A stretch of 30,903 nt of DNA from a virus (lineage: Duplodnaviria > Caudoviricetes). The stretch covers positions 1 to 30,903 of IMG/VR virus record IMGVR_UViG_3300031851_000110; one strand, written 5' to 3'. A program made the position numbers and the translations under genes. The notes beneath the pieces are model-generated. The model saw only the letters and a list, made by a program, of their open reading frames with translations. It had not been told where the DNA came from and did no database searches. This document shows positions 20,417 through 28,756 of this stretch, piece after piece; positions within the stretch are counted from its first letter, which is position 1, and every line of letters starts with the position of its first letter.

Positions 20417-21289
20417 ATGACTACACCACAACCAAAGAAAGTCAATTATTTGAACAACAAAGATATCCTTAAACAGATACATGCAAGTAAAATGTCTTAC
20501 TGCTATGTTCAGGACGACAAATATTTTAACGTTGACCTTATATTAGACGACGTTAAAAAAATTAATAAAACAGCAATTAGTGAAGCACGAGCCAATCGTG
20601 CATCTAAAGTTCAATCAGAAGGCTATCAAAAAGCAATGGCAGAAGGAGGCTGGGATAAAAAACCTAAGCAGAAAGATTTTGCTATTGATCCTGAGTCTGT
20701 ACCAGTAGATGAATTGGTATTCAGGGTAATGGGATATGACCATATTCCGGATGAGCCTGGCAGAAAGAAAACTACAAAAACTATTGCAGACACAAAAGCA
20801 AAGTTAAACTTTCCACCTTTTAAACATTATATTTTAGATAGTGCTGGAAGTAATCCTAGAGAAGTTGCTAGAAGTCATTGGGTAGGTGGACTACACAATG
20901 GACATTTTTCAGTTGACCATGGCAAGATTACTAACACATTAGGTAGCATGTTTATGAAACTTGTCGAGCGATACAGTCAACGAGGTAACTGGAGAGGTTA
21001 CACTTATGTAGACGAAATGCGTGGACAAGCATTAGTGCAACTTGCACAAATAGGACTACAGTTTAACGAAGCAAAATCAGATAATCCATTTGCATATTAT
21101 ACTGCAACAGTTAATAACAGTTTCACAAGAGTTTTAAATTTAGAGAAACGTAATCAAAACATTAGAGACGACATATTAATTGAGTCAGGACATTTACCAA
21201 GTTACGGAAGACAGATTGCTCACGAAAATGCTATGAAAGAACTTCGTTCAGCGGCTGAAACTGAAGTAGAAAATACAAATACCGAGTAA
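20417..21289 (+). CDS. gp55: Sigma factor for late transcription (T4 gp55-like)
   Basis: N-terminal NYLNNKDIL, and NWRGYTYVDEMRGQALVQL...FNEAKSDNPFAYYT core motif; T4-like order gp55-gp47-gp46. Confidence 0.85.
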   Translation: MTTPQPKKVNYLNNKDILKQIHASKMSYCYVQDDKYFNVDLILDDVKKINKTAISEARANRASKVQSEGYQKAMAEGGWDKKPKQKDFAIDPESVPVDELVFRVMGYDHIPDEPGRKKTTKTIADTKAKLNFPPFKHYILDSAGSNPREVARSHWVGGLHNGHFSVDHGKITNTLGSMFMKLVERYSQRGNWRGYTYVDEMRGQALVQLAQIGLQFNEAKSDNPFAYYTATVNNSFTRVLNLEKRNQNIRDDILIESGHLPSYGRQIAHENAMKELRSAAETEVENTNTE

Positions 21290-21297
21290 CATAATAT

Positions 21298-22317
21298 ATG
21301 GCAAACCTTTTTGAAAGGGCCGCATGTTTTACTGATATACATTACGGCTTAAAACAAAATAGTAGGCAACACCTACAAGATTGTCAAAACTACATTGACT
21401 GGTTTATTGCAGAAGCAAAAGCCAGAGATTGTGAGACATGTATCTTTTTAGGTGATTGGCATCATCACAGAGCAAGTATTAATATTGCTACTATGAATGC
21501 AACTATTAGAGACTTAAAAAAATTAAACGAATCGTTTGAAACTGTTTACATGATTTTAGGTAATCATGATTTATATTATAGAGAAAAACGTGACCTAAAC
21601 AGTATTGAGTTTGCTAGAGATTTACCTAACATTGTAATGATAGATGAACATTTTTTACAAGATGATGTTGCTATTATACCTTGGCTAGTAGGTGATGAGT
21701 ACAAACAAGTTGCTAAAATGAAATGCAAATATATGTTTGCACATTTTGAATTACCTTATTTTAAAATGAATGCAATGATTGAAATGCCGGACCATGGTGG
21801 TATAAACGATAAAATGTTAAGTGGTCCAGAATATGTGTTTAGTGGTCACTTTCACAAACGACAATACAAGAACAACATACATTATATAGGTAATGCTTTC
21901 CCACACAATTATTCAGATGCAGGTGATAACGAACGTGGTGCTATGTTTTTAACATGGGGAGAAGAACCTGTATATGTTAATTGGGATAACTGTCCTAAAT
22001 ATGTTACAATGGGACTTAGGCAACTATTAGAAAAGCCAGAAAATTATTTAGACTCACAAACACATGCTAGAATAAAATTAGATGTAAACATTAGTTACGA
22101 AGAAGCAAATTTTATTAGAGAAACATTTGCGGAAAATTTTAAAGTTAGAGAAATACAACTACTGCCTGTAAAAGAAGATGAGGAAGTATTTGAAGGTGGT
22201 GAAATACAGTTTGAAAGTGTGGACCAAATTGTTATACAGCAACTAGAAACTATAGAAAGTAATTTAGTTGACACCCAAGAACTAATAGAGATTTACAGGA
22301 GTTTGGAAACCCTATAA
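21298..22317 (+). CDS. gp47: Recombination endonuclease subunit (gp47; Mre11/SbcD family)
   Basis: Metallophosphoesterase motifs TDIHYG, FLGDW, GNHD, AHFE, SGHFH. Confidence 0.95.
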   Translation: MANLFERAACFTDIHYGLKQNSRQHLQDCQNYIDWFIAEAKARDCETCIFLGDWHHHRASINIATMNATIRDLKKLNESFETVYMILGNHDLYYREKRDLNSIEFARDLPNIVMIDEHFLQDDVAIIPWLVGDEYKQVAKMKCKYMFAHFELPYFKMNAMIEMPDHGGINDKMLSGPEYVFSGHFHKRQYKNNIHYIGNAFPHNYSDAGDNERGAMFLTWGEEPVYVNWDNCPKYVTMGLRQLLEKPENYLDSQTHARIKLDVNISYEEANFIRETFAENFKVREIQLLPVKEDEEVFEGGEIQFESVDQIVIQQLETIESNLVDTQELIEIYRSLETL

Positions 22318-24086
22318 TGTTAACGATTAAAAATGTAACAGCAAAGAATTTTATGAGTGTTGGAAACAACACACAGGCAGTAACGTTTGATACTGAGCAA
22401 CTTACTCTTGTTCTCGGACACAATCTAGACTTGGGTGGTGATGGTAGTAGAAACGGTACAGGTAAAACTACTATTATTAATGCACTTAGTTACGGACTTT
22501 ACGGAGAAGCACTAACAAATATCAGACGTGATAACTTAATTAACAAAACAAATGGTAAAGGCATGATTGTTACCGTGGACTTTGATATCGATGGACGTGA
22601 ATATCGTATCGAACGAGGCAGACGTCCTAATACTCTAAAATTTTATATTGATGGTGTTGAAAATGCAGATGACGAACAGCAAGGCGACAGCAGAGAAACA
22701 CAAAAAGAAATAGAAAGAGTAATAGGTTTTCCGCATAATATGTTTAAGCACTTGATTGCACTAAACACATACACGGAACCGTTCCTTAGTATGAAAACCA
22801 ATGACCAACGTGATATGATTGAGCAGTTGTTAGGTATTACAGAAATTAGTGAGAAGGCAGAATTACTTAAAGAACTTTTAAAAGGCACAAAAGATAATAT
22901 TAAGGAAGAAGAACTTAGAATACAGGCAGTTAATAATGCAAACAAACGTATCCAGAAAAATATTGAAGAAATAGAAAGCAGAAGTAAAGCATGGAACAAA
23001 AATAAATCGGATAAAGTTAATGCCCTACAGAATAGTTTAGACACCTTAAAAGAAACAGATATTGAACGTGAGTTAGAAAAACACAGAGCAATGGATGTTA
23101 TTAGCAAACAATATGCTCAAATGCAAGGACTAAACAGTGAACTATCTCAACTTGTAACTAGTAGCAAACGAAGTACTAGCACATTAGACACACTTAAAGA
23201 GAATATACAAAAAGCAGAAGACGGTGTATGCCCTGCATGTGGACAAGAAACAGCACACTTAGAAACACATGAAGAGTACACAGCAGAACTTAAAGAGAAA
23301 GAACAAAAAGAAATAGATTATTTTGCAGATTTAGAAATTAAAATTACAGATGTGAAAGGAAAACTACAAGATATAGGAGAGTTGCCTGAATCGCCTATTA
23401 CATTTTATTCTAGTATGGAAGATGCGTTACAGCACAGACACAATCTAGAAACAATTACTGCTCAAATCGAAGAAAATATTAAAGATACAAATCCTTACAC
23501 AGAACAAGTAGAGCAACTTCAAGATACAGGATTAGAAGATGTTAGTTATGACACAATGAATGAACTAACTAGACTAAAAGACCATCAAGAATTCCTATAT
23601 AAATTATTAACAAGTAAAGACAGTTTTATAAGAAAGAAAATTATTGACCAAAACTTACAATATTTAAATTATAGATTAGGTTACTATTTAGAAAAATTAG
23701 GACTACCACATGATGTTAAATTTAACTCAGACTTATCTGTAGATATTACAGAGTACGGAAGAGATTTAGACTTTGATAATCTAAGTAGAGGTGAGCGTAA
23801 TAGACTTATACTTGGTATGAGTTGGGCATTCCGTGACATCTACGAGAGTCTTAACCAGCCTATGAACTTAATGTGTATTGATGAACTTGTAGATTCGGGA
23901 ATGGATACAACTGGTGTAGAAAGTGCATTAGCCGTTCTCAAAAAAATGGGAAGAGAGTCGAAGAAAAATGTATTCTTAATATCTCACAAAGAAGAATTAC
24001 AAGGAAGAGTTAGCAATGTTTTATATGTTGTAAAAGAAGGTGGGTTCACTTCTTATGCAAACGATATAGAAATATTGGATAACTAA
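22317..24086 (+). CDS. gp46: Recombination ATPase subunit (gp46; Rad50/SbcC family)
   Basis: Walker A NGTGKTT, coiled coil with CPAC zinc hook, signature LSRGE, Walker B MCIDE, ISH. Confidence 0.95.
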   Translation: MLTIKNVTAKNFMSVGNNTQAVTFDTEQLTLVLGHNLDLGGDGSRNGTGKTTIINALSYGLYGEALTNIRRDNLINKTNGKGMIVTVDFDIDGREYRIERGRRPNTLKFYIDGVENADDEQQGDSRETQKEIERVIGFPHNMFKHLIALNTYTEPFLSMKTNDQRDMIEQLLGITEISEKAELLKELLKGTKDNIKEEELRIQAVNNANKRIQKNIEEIESRSKAWNKNKSDKVNALQNSLDTLKETDIERELEKHRAMDVISKQYAQMQGLNSELSQLVTSSKRSTSTLDTLKENIQKAEDGVCPACGQETAHLETHEEYTAELKEKEQKEIDYFADLEIKITDVKGKLQDIGELPESPITFYSSMEDALQHRHNLETITAQIEENIKDTNPYTEQVEQLQDTGLEDVSYDTMNELTRLKDHQEFLYKLLTSKDSFIRKKIIDQNLQYLNYRLGYYLEKLGLPHDVKFNSDLSVDITEYGRDLDFDNLSRGERNRLILGMSWAFRDIYESLNQPMNLMCIDELVDSGMDTTGVESALAVLKKMGRESKKNVFLISHKEELQGRVSNVLYVVKEGGFTSYANDIEILDN

Positions 24087-24091
24087 TATGC

Positions 24092-24517
24092 ATGAGCGAT
24101 TGGACATATCAAGGTAAAAAAGTAGACAGCATACCAGAATGGTGTGAAGGATTTGTATACCTAATTACCAATACTAAGAATGGTAAAAAGTATATAGGCA
24201 AAAAACTAGCAAAGTTCAAAACAACCAAACCGCCCTTAAAAGGCAGAAAGAATAAACGTAGAGGCACAAAAGAAAGTGACTGGCGTACTTATTGGGGTAG
24301 TTCGGATCACTTACTAAACGATGTTGTAGCACAAGGCGAGAAACAATTTACTAGAGAGATATTAGAGTATTGTGCCACTAGAGGCGTAATGAGTTATGTT
24401 GAAGCAGAGTTACAATTTAAACATAAAGTGTTGCTAACTGACGATTACTACAACGGAATTATCAACTGTCGCATAGGTGGTTCAAAAATCCTTAAAGAAA
24501 GTTTGAAAGATAGATAA
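24092..24517 (+). CDS. Short GIY-YIG family endonuclease (Seg/EndoII-like catalytic domain only)
   Basis: GFVYLITN...KKYIGKK, YWGSS, FTREIL, conserved E (YVEAELQ), YYN; no C-terminal DNA-binding repeats. Confidence 0.85.
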   Translation: MSDWTYQGKKVDSIPEWCEGFVYLITNTKNGKKYIGKKLAKFKTTKPPLKGRKNKRRGTKESDWRTYWGSSDHLLNDVVAQGEKQFTREILEYCATRGVMSYVEAELQFKHKVLLTDDYYNGIINCRIGGSKILKESLKDR

Positions 24518-24589
24518 CTATTTGCTGACTAACACATAATAGACACCACGTCATACTCACAAGGCACACACGGCACACATAGGACTATA

Positions 24590-24930
24590 CACCTGCCCCA
24601 ACCGAGGCATATTAAATCGGTCTCTTTGACAATCCAGTAATCCTGGTGCGGGAACTAGAGATGTATAGCGGCAAAGATACAAACACACGACAAACAGTAT
24701 TAAAAGGATGTAGGCTCTGAGAAAAAGCAACCTACAAGTTAGTGTAACTAAACTCTTCAAGGTTATATTAATTTCCGTGAGATTCGAGACGGTAGTGTAT
24801 GGGGACAAAAAGCTCACTGGTTCCTAAAAGCACCCGAGATAGAGATGGCGATGCTCATCATGATGACATCACATTGTTCTCCTTGCTTAAGGAGAATTAT
24901 GGCTTAACTTTCATGATAACGTTTATCGTG
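24590..24930 (+). ncRNA. Candidate large structured non-coding RNA (family not recognised)
   Basis: 486-nt gap in an otherwise gene-dense region. Nested helices found by eye: 24645-24658/24817-24834, 24662-24666/24677-24681, 24709-24714/24731-24736, 24737-24749/24761-24773 (4 G-U pairs), 24775-24778/24789-24792, 24857-24863/24911-24917, 24877-24884/24889-24896. Boundaries approximate. Confidence 0.65.
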
Positions 24931-24949
24931 TTAAAAAAATTTCCAACAA

Positions 24950-24976
24950 GAAATGAAATGAATGAAATGAATGAAT
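24950..24976 (+). repeat. Short tandem repeat (GAAAT/GAAT)x6
   Basis: gaaat gaaat gaat gaaat gaat gaat, enclosed by inverted repeat TTTCCAAC (24940-24947) / GTTGGAAA (24983-24990). Confidence 0.85.
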
Positions 24977-24987
24977 TTAGTAGTTGG

Positions 24988-25005
24988 AAAAGACACGAAG
25001 TGTCT
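24988..25005 (-). terminator. Possible intrinsic terminator of the oxygenase-like genes
   Basis: Hairpin AGACAC-TTC-GTGTCT overlapping the stop codon at 25004-25006, followed by a short T run on the minus strand. Confidence 0.45.
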
Positions 25006-25528
25006 AAAGTATTGTATCTAAATATGCTATAGTATCTTTATAGTTCTTCCGCAAGTTAATAGAAAACATTTTAGATTCTTTATTAACTTGTCTCATATCA
25101 CTTCCATGTGACTTTTGAACATTTAACACAAGACATTGTCCAGGGTTTATGAATTTTGATTCTGTCTTCTTTCCGTGGGTAATAGATATAGGGTGTTGTT
25201 CTAGATTAAACAAAATATTACATTTACGCACAAACGGATTACTTTCCCAGCCAATTAAAAAGTCTTCATGATTTTTAACTTGCTGATTTGCAGGAACAGT
25301 TTCAAACCCCACACTATGTTCTTCTGTAACTTCTATAGGACTTAATAATTTTTGTACAGTTTCTAGACAAGATAAGTCTTTTAACATTAATATATCTTGA
25401 ATAATATCATTTCTGTCTGGATCGTTGTGCATGTAAAATTCGTGCGTAGGTGTCGTGCTTTCTATTTCTTCTTTTAGTTCTAGAATTGCTTGTATGTCTA
25501 ATGGGAAATTGTATACTTTACTAAACAC
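25004..25528 (-). CDS. Putative 2OG-Fe(II) oxygenase / cupin-fold protein
   Basis: HED (HxD) ... RKCNILFNL ... LVLNVQKSHGS distal His; GTG start with AGGAG RBS. Confidence 0.65.
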   Translation of the reverse strand: MFSKVYNFPLDIQAILELKEEIESTTPTHEFYMHNDPDRNDIIQDILMLKDLSCLETVQKLLSPIEVTEEHSVGFETVPANQQVKNHEDFLIGWESNPFVRKCNILFNLEQHPISITHGKKTESKFINPGQCLVLNVQKSHGSDMRQVNKESKMFSINLRKNYKDTIAYLDTIL

Positions 25529-25964
25529 CTAATTGCTCCTTTGCTTTCCAAAAATCTTGCCTTGTATTTATTGTTAAAAATTTATAGTTGTATGAGTGTG
25601 TATTTTCGGACCCATGTTCTTTCCTGGTGTTTAACAAAAACATATCTCCGTGTTTTAATATCACAGTTTCTTTCACGTCATTGTTGTGATGGAATATACT
25701 TGCAGTATTTCCTACGTTAATTAACAAATTACTTTTTCTTATATGGTCTATGTGACCGTCTAATATTTGATTTGCAGGAATAGTTTCTGCTCCAATTAAA
25801 TGCTCATCTAGTAAGTTAAACTGTTCTATAAATTCTGCAGGAAACCATTTTGTTGTTTTGATTCTTTCTATAGGAAAAACACATTGTATAACATTGTTGT
25901 ATTCAAATTCCCATCTCCCAAAACCCTTAGTTTCTAACAGGTTAGTGAATATATCCTTGTACAT
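25521..25964 (-). CDS. Putative 2OG-Fe(II) oxygenase / cupin-fold protein (paralog of neighbour)
   Basis: ETIPANQILDGHID...RKSNLLINV...FLLNTRKEHGS aligns with the neighbour. Start at ATG 25964 preferred over 25982 given the promoter position. Confidence 0.65.
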   Translation of the reverse strand: MYKDIFTNLLETKGFGRWEFEYNNVIQCVFPIERIKTTKWFPAEFIEQFNLLDEHLIGAETIPANQILDGHIDHIRKSNLLINVGNTASIFHHNNDVKETVILKHGDMFLLNTRKEHGSENTHSYNYKFLTINTRQDFWKAKEQLGV

Positions 25965-25969
25965 ACCAG

Positions 25970-25977
25970 TATTTATG
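25970..25977 (-). promoter_or_regulatory. Putative late promoter CATAAATA
   Basis: T4-late-like box 5 nt upstream of ATG 25964. Confidence 0.6.
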
Positions 25978-26042
25978 TACAATATTTGTATAAAATGCTA
26001 GGTTTGTGGTAAAAAAGTTACCAGAAAAAGTGGTAAAAAAAC

Positions 26043-26070: not shown

Positions 26071-26100
26071 AGTATGTATATTAAAAGATGTAGGAGCGTC

Positions 26101-26430
26101 ATGATAGATATATTGCAAGAAGTAACAGACTGGGGCAAATACAAGGTAAACAATGGCATTTACCATGTTAACGGCGCCGGTAAGTTAATAGCATACCAAC
26201 CAAACAAAGATGCTGAAATACAGGTATTAAATGTGCCTAGTAATCAGTTTAGTAAAGCAAGACGTAAGTTTGTTAAAATAGGCGAAAGAGCAGAAGAAGT
26301 ACCTAGTCATGTTATTGAAGTGACTGGATCTAAGGGCAACATTTATTTCGTAGATACGGAAAAACGTACTTGTACTTGCCCAGGTTTTACATACAGAGGA
26401 GACTGTAAACATGTTAAAGAATATTGCTAG
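26101..26430 (+). CDS. SWIM zinc-finger protein
   Basis: GSKGNIYFV...CTCPGFTYRGDCKH (CxC...CxH); AGGAG RBS before ATG 26101. Confidence 0.85.
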   Translation: MIDILQEVTDWGKYKVNNGIYHVNGAGKLIAYQPNKDAEIQVLNVPSNQFSKARRKFVKIGERAEEVPSHVIEVTGSKGNIYFVDTEKRTCTCPGFTYRGDCKHVKEYC

Positions 26431-28756
26431 TGTTTTAATAATTTTATTACTTGGTGCCTGTGCTAGTGGCGGAGGTTCTGCTGGTTTAGTTATGGAAACT
26501 ACCATTACACCACCTCCAACAACTACAACTAATCCAAATGACAAGAGGCATCAGTTTGAATCGTTTTTCGATGAATACACAGAATCCTCTAGTTCTCTTG
26601 GTTACAACAGAGTAACGTATCAAGTAGGTGAGTTTAACGATACACAATGGGTTAACGGAAAATATACTGTAGAAGATTTTTCATTTTTACAAGTTATAAT
26701 TGACGGTAGTCATGGTGGTAAGGATCAAAATGATCCAAATAGTGACGAGTATTCGGAACCCGGAAATTGGATGACTAATGCAAGTTTAGTTATTGAAAAT
26801 GACATCAATCAAGATGGGCACAGCGACTTTGTAATTTACATGCAAACATTCGGTGATAGAAATACACTACCTGGTATGAGAATGTTACAGTTTGTAAATG
26901 ATGGTAGCGGACATTTCCAATTAGACTGTAGTGTGTTTGAAAATAACACTTGCCCTATTGTGTTTGGCGAAGGTTCTACTATGAACAATTTAGGTTGGTG
27001 GCACAACGAAGGTGCCCCAGTTCAAGAATACAATATGGGTGTTGCACATCAATATGATTTGAATGGTGACGGTAATAAAGATATTTTTAATGTTAGTCAA
27101 CTATGGCTTACAGAAAATGGACAGTTTGTTAATTCGCATGATAACTTGCCAGACTTTATGTTTGAAAACTTAAATGCTGATGGTGTTAATGTTGGTATTT
27201 TTGTTCACGACCATGCAGTAGGTGACTTAAATGGCGACGGTTACAATGATATATTCATGCCTAACACCACTCCTATAAGTACACACAACAACGGCTACAA
27301 GTTTTTTATGCTAAACGATGGCACAGGTAACTTTAAAGATGTTAGTTTTAAAGTAGGGCACTCAGCCTACTTTGCTACATCTACAACTATTGCAGATTTT
27401 GACAACGATGGATTTGGCGATATTGCATTAGGTTGGAGTGCTTCTGCTTATAGAGACTTAGGTGGTAATAGTGTCGGCGGAATATATTGGGGCAATACCG
27501 ATATGGATTATACCCGAGACTATACAGCATTACCTCCAGGCTATTATGAGAATAATATTGCATTTGATATGCAAGTAATAGACTCGAACAATGACGGACT
27601 GTTAGATATTCTTATTGCTAATACAAACGGTGATCCTTATTATCAAGGGCATGTTTTACAATTGATTATGAATGACGGAAATAGACAGTTTTTTAATTGT
27701 TCATTCCTAGACGACGGTGCTACTGACAGTGATATAGGTGCAGGACATATTTACGTTTTAGACTTTGACCATGATGGTGATATGGATATTTTTGTAGGTC
27801 CTGGACAAGACTCGTATGTACTTTACAACAACGATGGCGACTGGAGTTGCAAAAATTGTGAATTTGCTAGACCTGATAATGGTGCAGTAATGAGTTTGTT
27901 ATTTCCTGTAGAAGTCGATGGCATGTATGAGTATGACTTTATTGGTATTGACATTATGAGTATGGGTGATACACAGACTGTTAGTAATTTTTATATTAGT
28001 TTAGATCCTCCAGCACAATTAGGAGAAATGCGTACTGAACTTTTTGATAAGTCTAAGAATTATGCTCAAACGGTGTTTACAAATAAAACAATGTTTCATA
28101 ACATAAAAAATGCAACTAAATCTAGTAGTGTGTTTTATGTCGACAATCAGTTTAATAGCATAGCAGGATATTCACACAACTTTGATGATTTTGGAATTAC
28201 TGTAGGTCAAACAAACGAAGGTGCAATGTTTTATTTAGACAAACAACAAGGCACATATCATTATGGTATTGGATATTTTAACAATACAATCGATGCACAA
28301 AATTATGGCAAGTGGTATGGAACAGGTACAGCAGAATTAGATTTTCAAACACTTAATATGTTTGCAGAAAAGATTTCGCCTATATCAAATAATTTGTACA
28401 TCACGACAGGTGTAGCATATTATAATACAGATGTTGCAAGTTTTACAGAAAACCACAGTCAATATAATGTAAGTGTAAAAGATTTTACATTAAACGATAT
28501 TGAGTTGTATGTGGATGTTACTTACAATTTACATAGTAAGTTTGGAGCAACATTTATTACTGTAGGTGCTAGTTCACATAAAAGTTTATCTACAACAAAT
28601 ATACAATGGGACGGTGGTCTGGTATCACAGTTTGATTATGATAAGCATGTTAGTAGAACTACTATAGGTCATGTGTATGGTCCGCTTTATGCAAAAGCAA
28701 CTTTTAGTTCTGTTGAAATGGATACTTATGAAGTTGGTTTCCAATTAAAGTTTTAA
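26411..28756 (+). CDS. Predicted lipoprotein with FG-GAP/VCBS repeats and autotransporter-like C-terminal beta-barrel
   Basis: Signal peptide with lipobox LGAC, P/T linker, six DxDxDG-type loops (DINQDGHSD, DLNGDGNKD, DLNGDGYND, DFDNDGFGD, DSNNDGLLD, DFDHDGDMD), amphipathic beta C-terminus ending YEVGFQLKF. Confidence 0.75.
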   Translation: MLKNIASVLIILLLGACASGGGSAGLVMETTITPPPTTTTNPNDKRHQFESFFDEYTESSSSLGYNRVTYQVGEFNDTQWVNGKYTVEDFSFLQVIIDGSHGGKDQNDPNSDEYSEPGNWMTNASLVIENDINQDGHSDFVIYMQTFGDRNTLPGMRMLQFVNDGSGHFQLDCSVFENNTCPIVFGEGSTMNNLGWWHNEGAPVQEYNMGVAHQYDLNGDGNKDIFNVSQLWLTENGQFVNSHDNLPDFMFENLNADGVNVGIFVHDHAVGDLNGDGYNDIFMPNTTPISTHNNGYKFFMLNDGTGNFKDVSFKVGHSAYFATSTTIADFDNDGFGDIALGWSASAYRDLGGNSVGGIYWGNTDMDYTRDYTALPPGYYENNIAFDMQVIDSNNDGLLDILIANTNGDPYYQGHVLQLIMNDGNRQFFNCSFLDDGATDSDIGAGHIYVLDFDHDGDMDIFVGPGQDSYVLYNNDGDWSCKNCEFARPDNGAVMSLLFPVEVDGMYEYDFIGIDIMSMGDTQTVSNFYISLDPPAQLGEMRTELFDKSKNYAQTVFTNKTMFHNIKNATKSSSVFYVDNQFNSIAGYSHNFDDFGITVGQTNEGAMFYLDKQQGTYHYGIGYFNNTIDAQNYGKWYGTGTAELDFQTLNMFAEKISPISNNLYITTGVAYYNTDVASFTENHSQYNVSVKDFTLNDIELYVDVTYNLHSKFGATFITVGASSHKSLSTTNIQWDGGLVSQFDYDKHVSRTTIGHVYGPLYAKATFSSVEMDTYEVGFQLKF

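Follow-up and report, generated by a model that had tools for sequence, protein, structure and literature searches.

The longest gap in the window, by which we mean the whole 30,903-nt stretch of viral DNA that was analysed, holds a conserved large structured plus-strand RNA whose predicted fold, drawn from sequence comparison, contains two pseudoknots. The RNA itself is large and partly catalogued, and its core is, by the sequence models described below, a distant relative of the Polynucleobacter-1 motif; its 3' module appears to be undescribed. By analogy with known origins we propose that the element is an RNA-primed, R-loop replication origin, a reading to which we give a probability of about 0.45. 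The GIY-YIG protein encoded beside it is probably a nuclease for branched DNA that can be exchanged for others, and probably not RNA-guided.

The window, 31 kb long and 9% complete, is a piece of a T4-like jumbo phage genome, and the sequencing runs that contain this stretch are marine. Baseplate genes occupy the minus strand, and the plus strand carries a late sigma factor, gp47, gp46 and a small nuclease. Judged by the sigma factor, the nearest cultured phages are PA5oct, Paride, CBB, GAP32, BF, Phosso and EJP2, at 42-48% identity. A sequence-only reading that preceded this analysis had singled out the gap behind the nuclease gene as the longest in the window; it extends 486 nt to the next minus-strand gene and is indeed the longest between the main ORFs listed, and all the letters quoted in that reading are found at their coordinates. 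That reading missed the 3' module, which consists of two repeat copies with a hairpin between them; an A+T-rich stretch and then GA-rich hairpins come after it. The features are as follows.

20417..24086, plus strand: upstream operon; the phage is a T4-like jumbo phage and a relative of the PA5oct/121Q/GAP32 group
20417-21289, plus strand: late sigma factor, gp55-like, by profile matches
21298-22317, plus strand: gp47/SbcD-like, by profile matches
22317-24086, plus strand: gp46/SbcC-like, by profile matches
24092..24517, plus strand: Seg-type stand-alone GIY-YIG protein of 141 aa (PF19835, phrog_447)
24511..24540, plus strand: weak sigma-70-like promoter match (9/12; 4 found against 4.5 expected by chance)
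24518..24580, plus strand: variable-length leader rich in A and C, in which GGCA words recur
24581..24700, plus strand: 5' domain of the window type, by covariation; in other members the equivalent slot holds the RF01718 domain
24585-90/24663-68, 24602-05/24617-20, 24634-37/24643-46 and 24677-80/24697-700, plus strand: 5' domain helices
24709..24736, plus strand: hairpin with a highly conserved A-rich loop
24737..24773, plus strand: long hairpin, the loop of which (24753-56) pairs with 24841-44 as pseudoknot 2
24777..24844, plus strand: core, including the 3' strand of pseudoknot 2
24777-81/24813-17, plus strand: pseudoknot 1
24790-97/24831-36 and 24801-06/24820-25, plus strand: core helices
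24858..24867, plus strand: direct repeat copy 1, by identity covariation
24877..24896, plus strand: hairpin separating the repeats
24911..24920, plus strand: direct repeat copy 2, by identity covariation
24921..24939, plus strand: A+T-rich stretch (75% over 40 nt in the window)
24940..24990, plus strand: covarying stem around GA-rich repeats
24991..25005, plus strand: terminal hairpin with a C-GAA-G triloop (two-sided change in 4/6 pairs, no G-U)

Several genes downstream of the element deserve mention in their own right. The small proteins encoded at 25004-25982, and neighbouring ones in loci L028, L107 and L108, match no Pfam or PHROG family and have by eye the look of 2-oxoglutarate/Fe oxygenases; such genes are variably present around the element. 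A SWIM zinc-finger protein is encoded at 26074-26430, and a relative of it lies directly behind the element in locus L136. The interval 26411-28756 encodes a 781-aa FG-GAP repeat protein with, by eye, a lipoprotein-like start and the look of an outer-membrane barrel at its C-terminus.

About half of the 80 loci that were fetched by their nuclease protein conserve the gap at 70-92% in DNA. The alignment comprises 41 non-redundant window-type elements, taken from 71 full-length ones among 153 candidates. It yielded a plus-strand structure of 70 pairs in which 95% of cells are paired, and the covariation check that had been proposed for the regions behind homologous nuclease genes came out in favour of a structured RNA, with two-sided change in 44 of the 70 pairs. 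None of 500 shuffles equalled the real value and slid controls were 32-43% paired, although the structure was drawn from the same sequences and these controls therefore flatter the result somewhat. Both pseudoknots of the predicted fold have all their cells paired, and pseudoknot 2 shows two-sided change in 4/4 pairs. Left out of the 70 counted pairs were a mis-drawn 3-pair helix at 24630/24650 and the helix 24623-26/24657-60, which looks real by eye but falls in a gappy part of the alignment (93/124 cells). Paired columns contain 198 G-U against 35 A-C combinations, which indicates that the plus strand folds; the sequence-only reading had likewise taken G-U pairs to favour a plus-strand RNA. 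Single-sequence folding energies had z values of -0.69 and -1.12 for the plus strand and -1.98 for the minus strand. Since the plus-strand energy does not exceed that of shuffles, the single-sequence fold was no evidence.

Among the helices that had been drawn by eye, the hairpins at 24709-24736 (237/243 cells paired, two-sided change in 3/6 pairs) and 24737-24773 (501/522 cells, 12/13 pairs) are borne out. The proposed closing helix 24645-58/24817-34 finds no support, being 76.5% paired with covariation equal to that of shuffles; nor do hairpins 24662-81 and 24775-92, which lack two-sided change and face competing pairings that covary. The two sides of the outer helix of a supposed second domain (24857-24917) do covary, but through identity and not complementarity. 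A net frameshift in the 5' half, seen in 28 of 40 homologues, and stop-free stretches that shrink to at most 35-39 codons led us to reject a hidden protein in the gap (86-aa and 77-aa frames). Likenesses seen by eye to group I/II introns, RNase P and tmRNA found no support in Rfam. The leader holds 121 GGCA words against 1 TGCC in 77 class A loci; this one-strand bias upstream of the element, expressed against the reverse complement, is 121:1, 130:3 and 62:2 in three classes, and locus L350 has long runs of GGCA-type leader repeats. Locus L006 seems to carry the 5' part of the RNA twice, to judge by two overlapping BLAST matches to the window element that lie some 150 nt past its nuclease gene.

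Column pairs linked by identity (24860/24913, 24855/24909, 24858/24911 and 24867/24920) outrank all other signals in the alignment. In window-type elements the two repeat copies are identical at 9 of 10 positions in 41/41 homologues, against a shuffle mean of 6.2; the exception is position 8, a G in every copy 1 and an A in every copy 2. We extended this comparison to 287 non-redundant loci in three motif-defined classes, of which 220 could be anchored via the fixed flanks with identity left unused; the 67 unanchored loci are mostly class A with other flanks. The 7-mers of the two copies are identical in 216 of the 220 anchored loci (shuffle mean 31, maximum 45). There are 26 different 7-mers among these loci, and the motif, 7-10 nt long, differs between phages. 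The usual difference between copies at position 8 speaks against one repeat having simply been copied from the other. Genome G003 has two elements with different 7-mers, each matched internally. Copy spacing varies continuously from 47 to 68 nt without helical phase. The 7-mers share a loose consensus and fixed flanks. Sharing of a 7-mer is commoner between loci with more similar GIY-YIG proteins, as kinship alone would produce, and phages with 92-96% identical nucleases carry different 7-mers.

A search of 154 loci from -800 to +500 found no reverse complement of a locus's own 7-mer at any fixed place, so that the partner of the 7-mer lies outside the transcript. Antiparallel pairing of the two repeats with each other was rejected (144/164 cells, no two-sided change), and most 7-mers of the other classes are non-palindromic. 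Beyond copy 2, the A+T-rich stretch averages 72% compared with 61% for whole loci (n=220). C-GNA-G loops are stable in DNA; the best tail hairpin with such a loop falls on the plus strand in 88/211 loci and on the minus strand in 29, tails with other loops account for 89/211, and 5/211 have no loop.

The Rfam comparison that had been suggested earlier gave a divided answer: the window matches no family, but the core of its RNA is distantly related to RF01718 (Polynucleobacter-1, 141 positions, gathering cut-off 37 bits). This family does not match the window at its gathering cut-off, nor does it at E<=10; it matches 15/20 class C loci. A search of Rfam with 20 chosen loci gave 0 matches, and one with 20 short class A loci gave a chance match only. 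The Polynucleobacter-1 motif comes from Weinberg et al. 2010 (PMC2864571), and the available part of that paper gives no function, phage context or nuclease link for it. In the long rows of its alignment we recognize by eye the same A-rich linker, hairpin and long hairpin, the loop of the latter being pseudoknotted with a 3' segment as in the window. Rfam models the 141-nt 5' domain only, and the 5' domain of the window is different. The alignment, in the part available, stops before the repeat module and has one of the two pseudoknots drawn.

Loci that match RF01718 likewise have the repeat module and, in most cases, the nuclease as a neighbour. We built a Polynucleobacter-1-type model solely from 34 loci chosen by their 5' motif. 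It ranked window positions 24713-24924 first in 94 kb, weakly (E 0.023), and retrieved window-type relatives over their full length at E 3e-5 to 2e-4; a pooled profile that includes the window-type relatives gave E 3e-16 for the window. The extended core feature, the long hairpin with its 3' pseudoknot (24753-56/24841-44), is present in the window and covaries. That a Polynucleobacter-1-type model finds window-type elements points to at least three interchangeable 5' domains on one core with one 3' module. Locus L349 (2352-2562) holds a Polynucleobacter-1-type element with the window-type A-rich hairpin, linking the classes. A literature search short of full-text level turned up neither an account of the repeat module nor a proposed function, and the RNA is not named in the available part of the main text of PMC10690425. 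A short-motif scan of bacterial and archaeal genomes returned 121 loci, none with a full-length element by model R1.

The 141-aa protein matches PF19835 (E 3e-33, 115 bits against a cut-off of 25) and phrog_447 (E 3e-37), and its residues Y23, Y34, G36, E104 and N121 are invariant in 30 homologues. The nearest fold to its model (mean pLDDT 82) is the I-TevI catalytic domain (Z 8.6, rmsd 2.6, 81 residues aligned); Foldseek with the model returned nothing at E<=0.001, and a sequence search for solved structures found none. Profiles and model thus agree with its earlier description as a stand-alone GIY-YIG protein with a basic insert, the latter being predicted to form a beta-hairpin (strands 41-46 and 56-61). 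The protein belongs to the Seg-type GIY-YIG proteins, a family in which 7996 of 8000 scored candidates are relatives and 837 phage records contain one; pairing with an RNA is seen only in this jumbo-phage group. We note that phrog_447 is labelled 'NAD synthetase' in PHROGs and many records and is actually a GIY-YIG domain. The insert is a family trait, present in phage Melnitz (71% identical) and shorter in phiM12, ACP17 and P-SSM7, and none of these four isolates has a long gap behind its nuclease gene.

The sequence-only reading had placed a structured RNA beside a nuclease and proposed for the two an RNP in which the RNA gives scaffold or targeting. In searches that started from the RNA, a GIY-YIG gene lies within 2.5 kb in 67/73, 73/73 and 60/68 viral loci among the matches listed, these being counts of loci and not of independent lineages, with some contigs recurring between sets. 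Each viral locus had at least 1200 nt upstream, and one of the 68 is a chance match in a gene. For metagenome loci the corresponding figure, within the available 1.3-6 kb and again among the matches listed, is 52/61. In 12 loci the pair is found apart from gp46, and 2 have it arranged head-to-head, so the linkage exceeds operon order. In L126, L128, L184 and L191 the nuclease gene and the RNA stand head-to-head 170-180 nt apart, and the RNA must there have its own promoter. In L028, L033 and L045 a minus-strand ORF about 500 nt behind the nuclease gene separates it from the RNA, which is preceded by an apparent copy of the last bases of the nuclease gene.

Searches that started from the protein gave 80 loci, 64 with the element by profile or repeat pattern and 3 more by eye (L024, L053 and L054); 8 end too early to call, leaving 72 callable. 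Thirteen of these 80 contigs (L001-L080) end within 560 nt of the nuclease gene, probably at assembly breaks in the element. The element is absent from 5/72 callable loci, whose proteins are 70-76% identical to that of the window and share its basic insert, and near which gp46, gp47, gp55 and hub genes are all missing; Melnitz likewise has a close homologue with this insert and no element. A PD-(D/E)XK resolvase-like gene takes the upstream place instead in 6 viral and 2 metagenome loci and lies downstream in one more. Complete elements with no nuclease gene in the available DNA were found in 4 class A and 7 metagenome loci, the 7 representing about four lineages and including one cut at its 3' end; most records are fragments, and a distant copy of the missing partner is possible. 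Those of the nuclease-free metagenome elements that were tested match RF01718 (5/5). Searches with PF19835 in 5 nuclease-free records and with R1 in 4 isolate genomes returned nothing, and gave no positive-control signal; R1 does not detect elements of class B or of the EJP2 type. Behind gp46, cultured relatives carry in this slot either a PD-(D/E)XK gene (PA5oct, Phosso) or one of EndoVII type (EJP2, 121Q, GAP32), and a gap of roughly 1 kb comes next.

RNA and nuclease are therefore usual neighbours, as first claimed, but not obligate ones, each occurring without the other nearby. The further claim, that the RNA serves as scaffold or guide of an OMEGA-like nuclease, is weakened. In its favour are the close linkage in most viral and metagenome loci, the 12 pairs away from gp46 and the 2 head-to-head, and a protein with only the catalytic domain and a basic hairpin. 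Against it stand close homologues with the same insert and no element, elements with no nuclease, and two other nuclease folds in the slot. The check for a guide-length variable segment with targets found none: the only constrained variable part is the 7-10-nt motif, with its matched 7 nt, mobile-element signs are lacking, and the best matches elsewhere in the near-complete genome G002 are 13-14 exact nt or 16/17 (E>=0.7). According to the available part of PMC13565253, IscB/omegaRNA (HEARO) and TnpB OMEGA systems have a compact nuclease gene beside a large structured RNA. The window has this arrangement too; however, the fold is GIY-YIG and not RuvC/HNH by profile and fold, and we see no transposon, no flank-derived guide and no obligatory partner. 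We consider an RNA-guided nuclease quite improbable; our preferred reading of the slot nuclease is an enzyme for branched DNA, possibly active at the site of the element.

Look-alikes of the element occur in cultured jumbo phages. The gap of the E. coli phage EJP2 matches 62 phage records, duplicate GenBank and RefSeq entries included, at 271 places; of the 60 rows listed, 59 have 4-5 such places per genome. EJP2 itself has five dispersed copies at 37, 91, 170, 250 and 293 kb, all on the same strand, each preceded by a TGATATAAT extended -10 and terminated by a repeat pair around a hairpin. The extended -10 is found at 5/5 EJP2 copies compared with 2/221 marine and freshwater loci. Eight copies examined share a layout of a long hairpin with a complementary 3' segment, repeat, hairpin, repeat and GA-rich tail, and a pseudoknot-2-like complement of at least 7 nt is present in 8/8. 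The EJP2 repeat is shorter and nearly the same in the five copies, one pair differing at position 6. Four of the five copies lie between a strong promoter and same-strand genes. EJP2 has no detectable relative of the GIY-YIG protein, and the four dispersed copies have no annotated nuclease beside them, most neighbours being hypothetical. Sequence profiles in both directions and covariance models failed to join the EJP2-type elements to the marine family, so that we infer homology from position and layout only. The gaps of PA5oct and Phosso show no clear repeat pair; that of Phosso (L584, 15560-16574) is a structured 1-kb gap between Holliday junction resolvase and RNase HI genes, and the four ncRNAs listed for PA5oct in the available part of PMC7318152 lie outside its syntenic gap.

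A replication-origin RNA had been a minor alternative in the sequence-only reading. It is now the best reading of these data, for a putative origin whose activity we infer. The identity rule, together with the lack of a complement in the RNA, implies that both copies meet the same partner, either the template strand or a protein, and different 7-mers within one genome and the unphased spacing favour the DNA strand. In the proposed mechanism, the RNA would arise when transcription of the gp55-47-46-nuclease operon reads through, or would have a promoter of its own, and folding of the scaffold would hold the 300 nt at the 5' end away from the template. The RNA would then pair through its copy 1 with the template strand at copy 2, 53 nt further on, since the template strand is the only complement of the 7-mer. 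The hybrid would open the A+T-rich stretch, and the displaced plus strand could fold its GA-rich and GNA-loop hairpins as single-stranded DNA, leading to helicase/primase loading. A processed RNA 3' end would prime the leading strand, and branched DNA that forms at the origin may be a substrate for cutting or resolution by the slot nuclease, with gp46/47. An R-loop origin fits with the A+T-rich stretch, with the tail of hairpins and with the several dispersed copies that cultured relatives have; in Phosso an RNase HI gene follows the syntenic gap.

The literature search found no described replication origin for this jumbo-phage group, and two known systems offer comparison. T4 has at least five origins, and oriF and oriG comprise a promoter, a transcript, an A+T-rich unwinding element and a persistent R-loop, as set out in the available part of PMC3016281. 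The present phage is also T4-like, with a predicted transcript followed by an A+T-rich stretch and dispersed sites in the cultured look-alikes. T4 origins are about 100 bp and their R-loops need no specific sequence or folded RNA (PMC3016281, available part), so that the conserved 300-nt knotted scaffold and matched repeat pair of the element, whose origin role is predicted, have no T4 counterpart. The second system is the ColE1 RNA II preprimer, a long folded RNA that hybridises to its own template and is cut to give a primer (PMC4555960, available part). The element resembles it in being a long folded RNA with a predicted template hybrid and primer, and differs in having two pseudoknots, an identity-linked repeat pair and no sequence or Rfam match; no counterpart of the antisense RNA I is seen at the element.

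Some observations count against an origin. Most marine and freshwater records have one copy, where genes converge, and the near-uniform EJP2 repeat would fit protein binding equally well. No base-skew switch occurs at the element in G002 (345 kb, 99% complete) and none is visible at the EJP2 copies; at least two T4 origins also lie outside base-skew-shift regions (PMC3016281, available part). The co-occurrence with the GIY-YIG gene, including the 12 loci away from gp46 and the 2 head-to-head, is not explained by an origin alone. Contigs from RNA runs cover parts of 24513-24867 and the nuclease gene in 8/8 libraries at depth 2-8, with strand, ends and level not readable from them. None falls in 24868-25320, where the method skips repeats near 24945-24981; this coverage therefore counts neither for nor against an origin.

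If the partner of the repeats were a protein, they would be tandem dsDNA sites for a phage initiator or regulator, and the RNA would merely open or mark the site. The loose 7-mer consensus with fixed flanks and the nearly single motif of all five EJP2 copies agree with this, as does the sharing of 7-mers among similar GIY-YIG proteins, for which kinship suffices. We nevertheless judge it unlikely in view of the 26 variants, the different 7-mers in one genome and where nucleases are 92-96% identical, and the unphased spacing. Identity between variable cores is also typical of the crossover sites of tyrosine recombinases, and in a recombination or packaging site the matched repeats would be crossover cores, the junction being resolved by the slot nuclease. 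Three nuclease folds in the slot, two of them annotated junction resolvases, and the adjacent gp46/47 would suit such a site; about 55 bp between the repeats is short for looping of duplex DNA, no recombinase gene is seen beside the element, and among the aligned loci there is no form without the middle segment, all of which make it improbable.

The size of the RNA, its two pseudoknots and its many invariant unpaired bases would be in keeping with a ribozyme or self-processing RNA that acts on the repeats in turn by cleavage, circularisation or ligation. Such activity seems very doubtful given that the RNA has no internal guide complementary to the repeats and no Rfam ribozyme match. Nor did a reverse transcriptase turn up in five large records (49-99% complete), which we searched with PF00078 only, as a test for retrons, DGRs and DRTs, with positive controls. 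Finally, a cis-acting antiterminator or terminator insulator would act on RNA polymerase during its own synthesis, and the four EJP2 copies between a strong promoter and same-strand genes are placed as this would require. The next genes lie on the opposite strand in the window and many relatives, and the repeat identity rule would be left unexplained; we regard this as highly unlikely.

The Polynucleobacter-1 motif has been without a function since 2010. Going beyond the R-loop origin as such, we tentatively suggest a new kind of jumbo-phage origin, possible though doubtful as a whole, in which a double-pseudoknot primer RNA would anchor itself via a free but matched 7-nt register, the 5' domain and the junction nuclease would be swappable, and the cultured look-alikes would be multiple origins. 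A programmable nuclease is unlikely to come from the element. The repeat identity rule is an unusual constraint that is sharply testable, and the look-alikes in cultured E. coli phages make the test possible. If the proposal is true, the origins of these phages would be named and a new primer-RNA architecture would be added.
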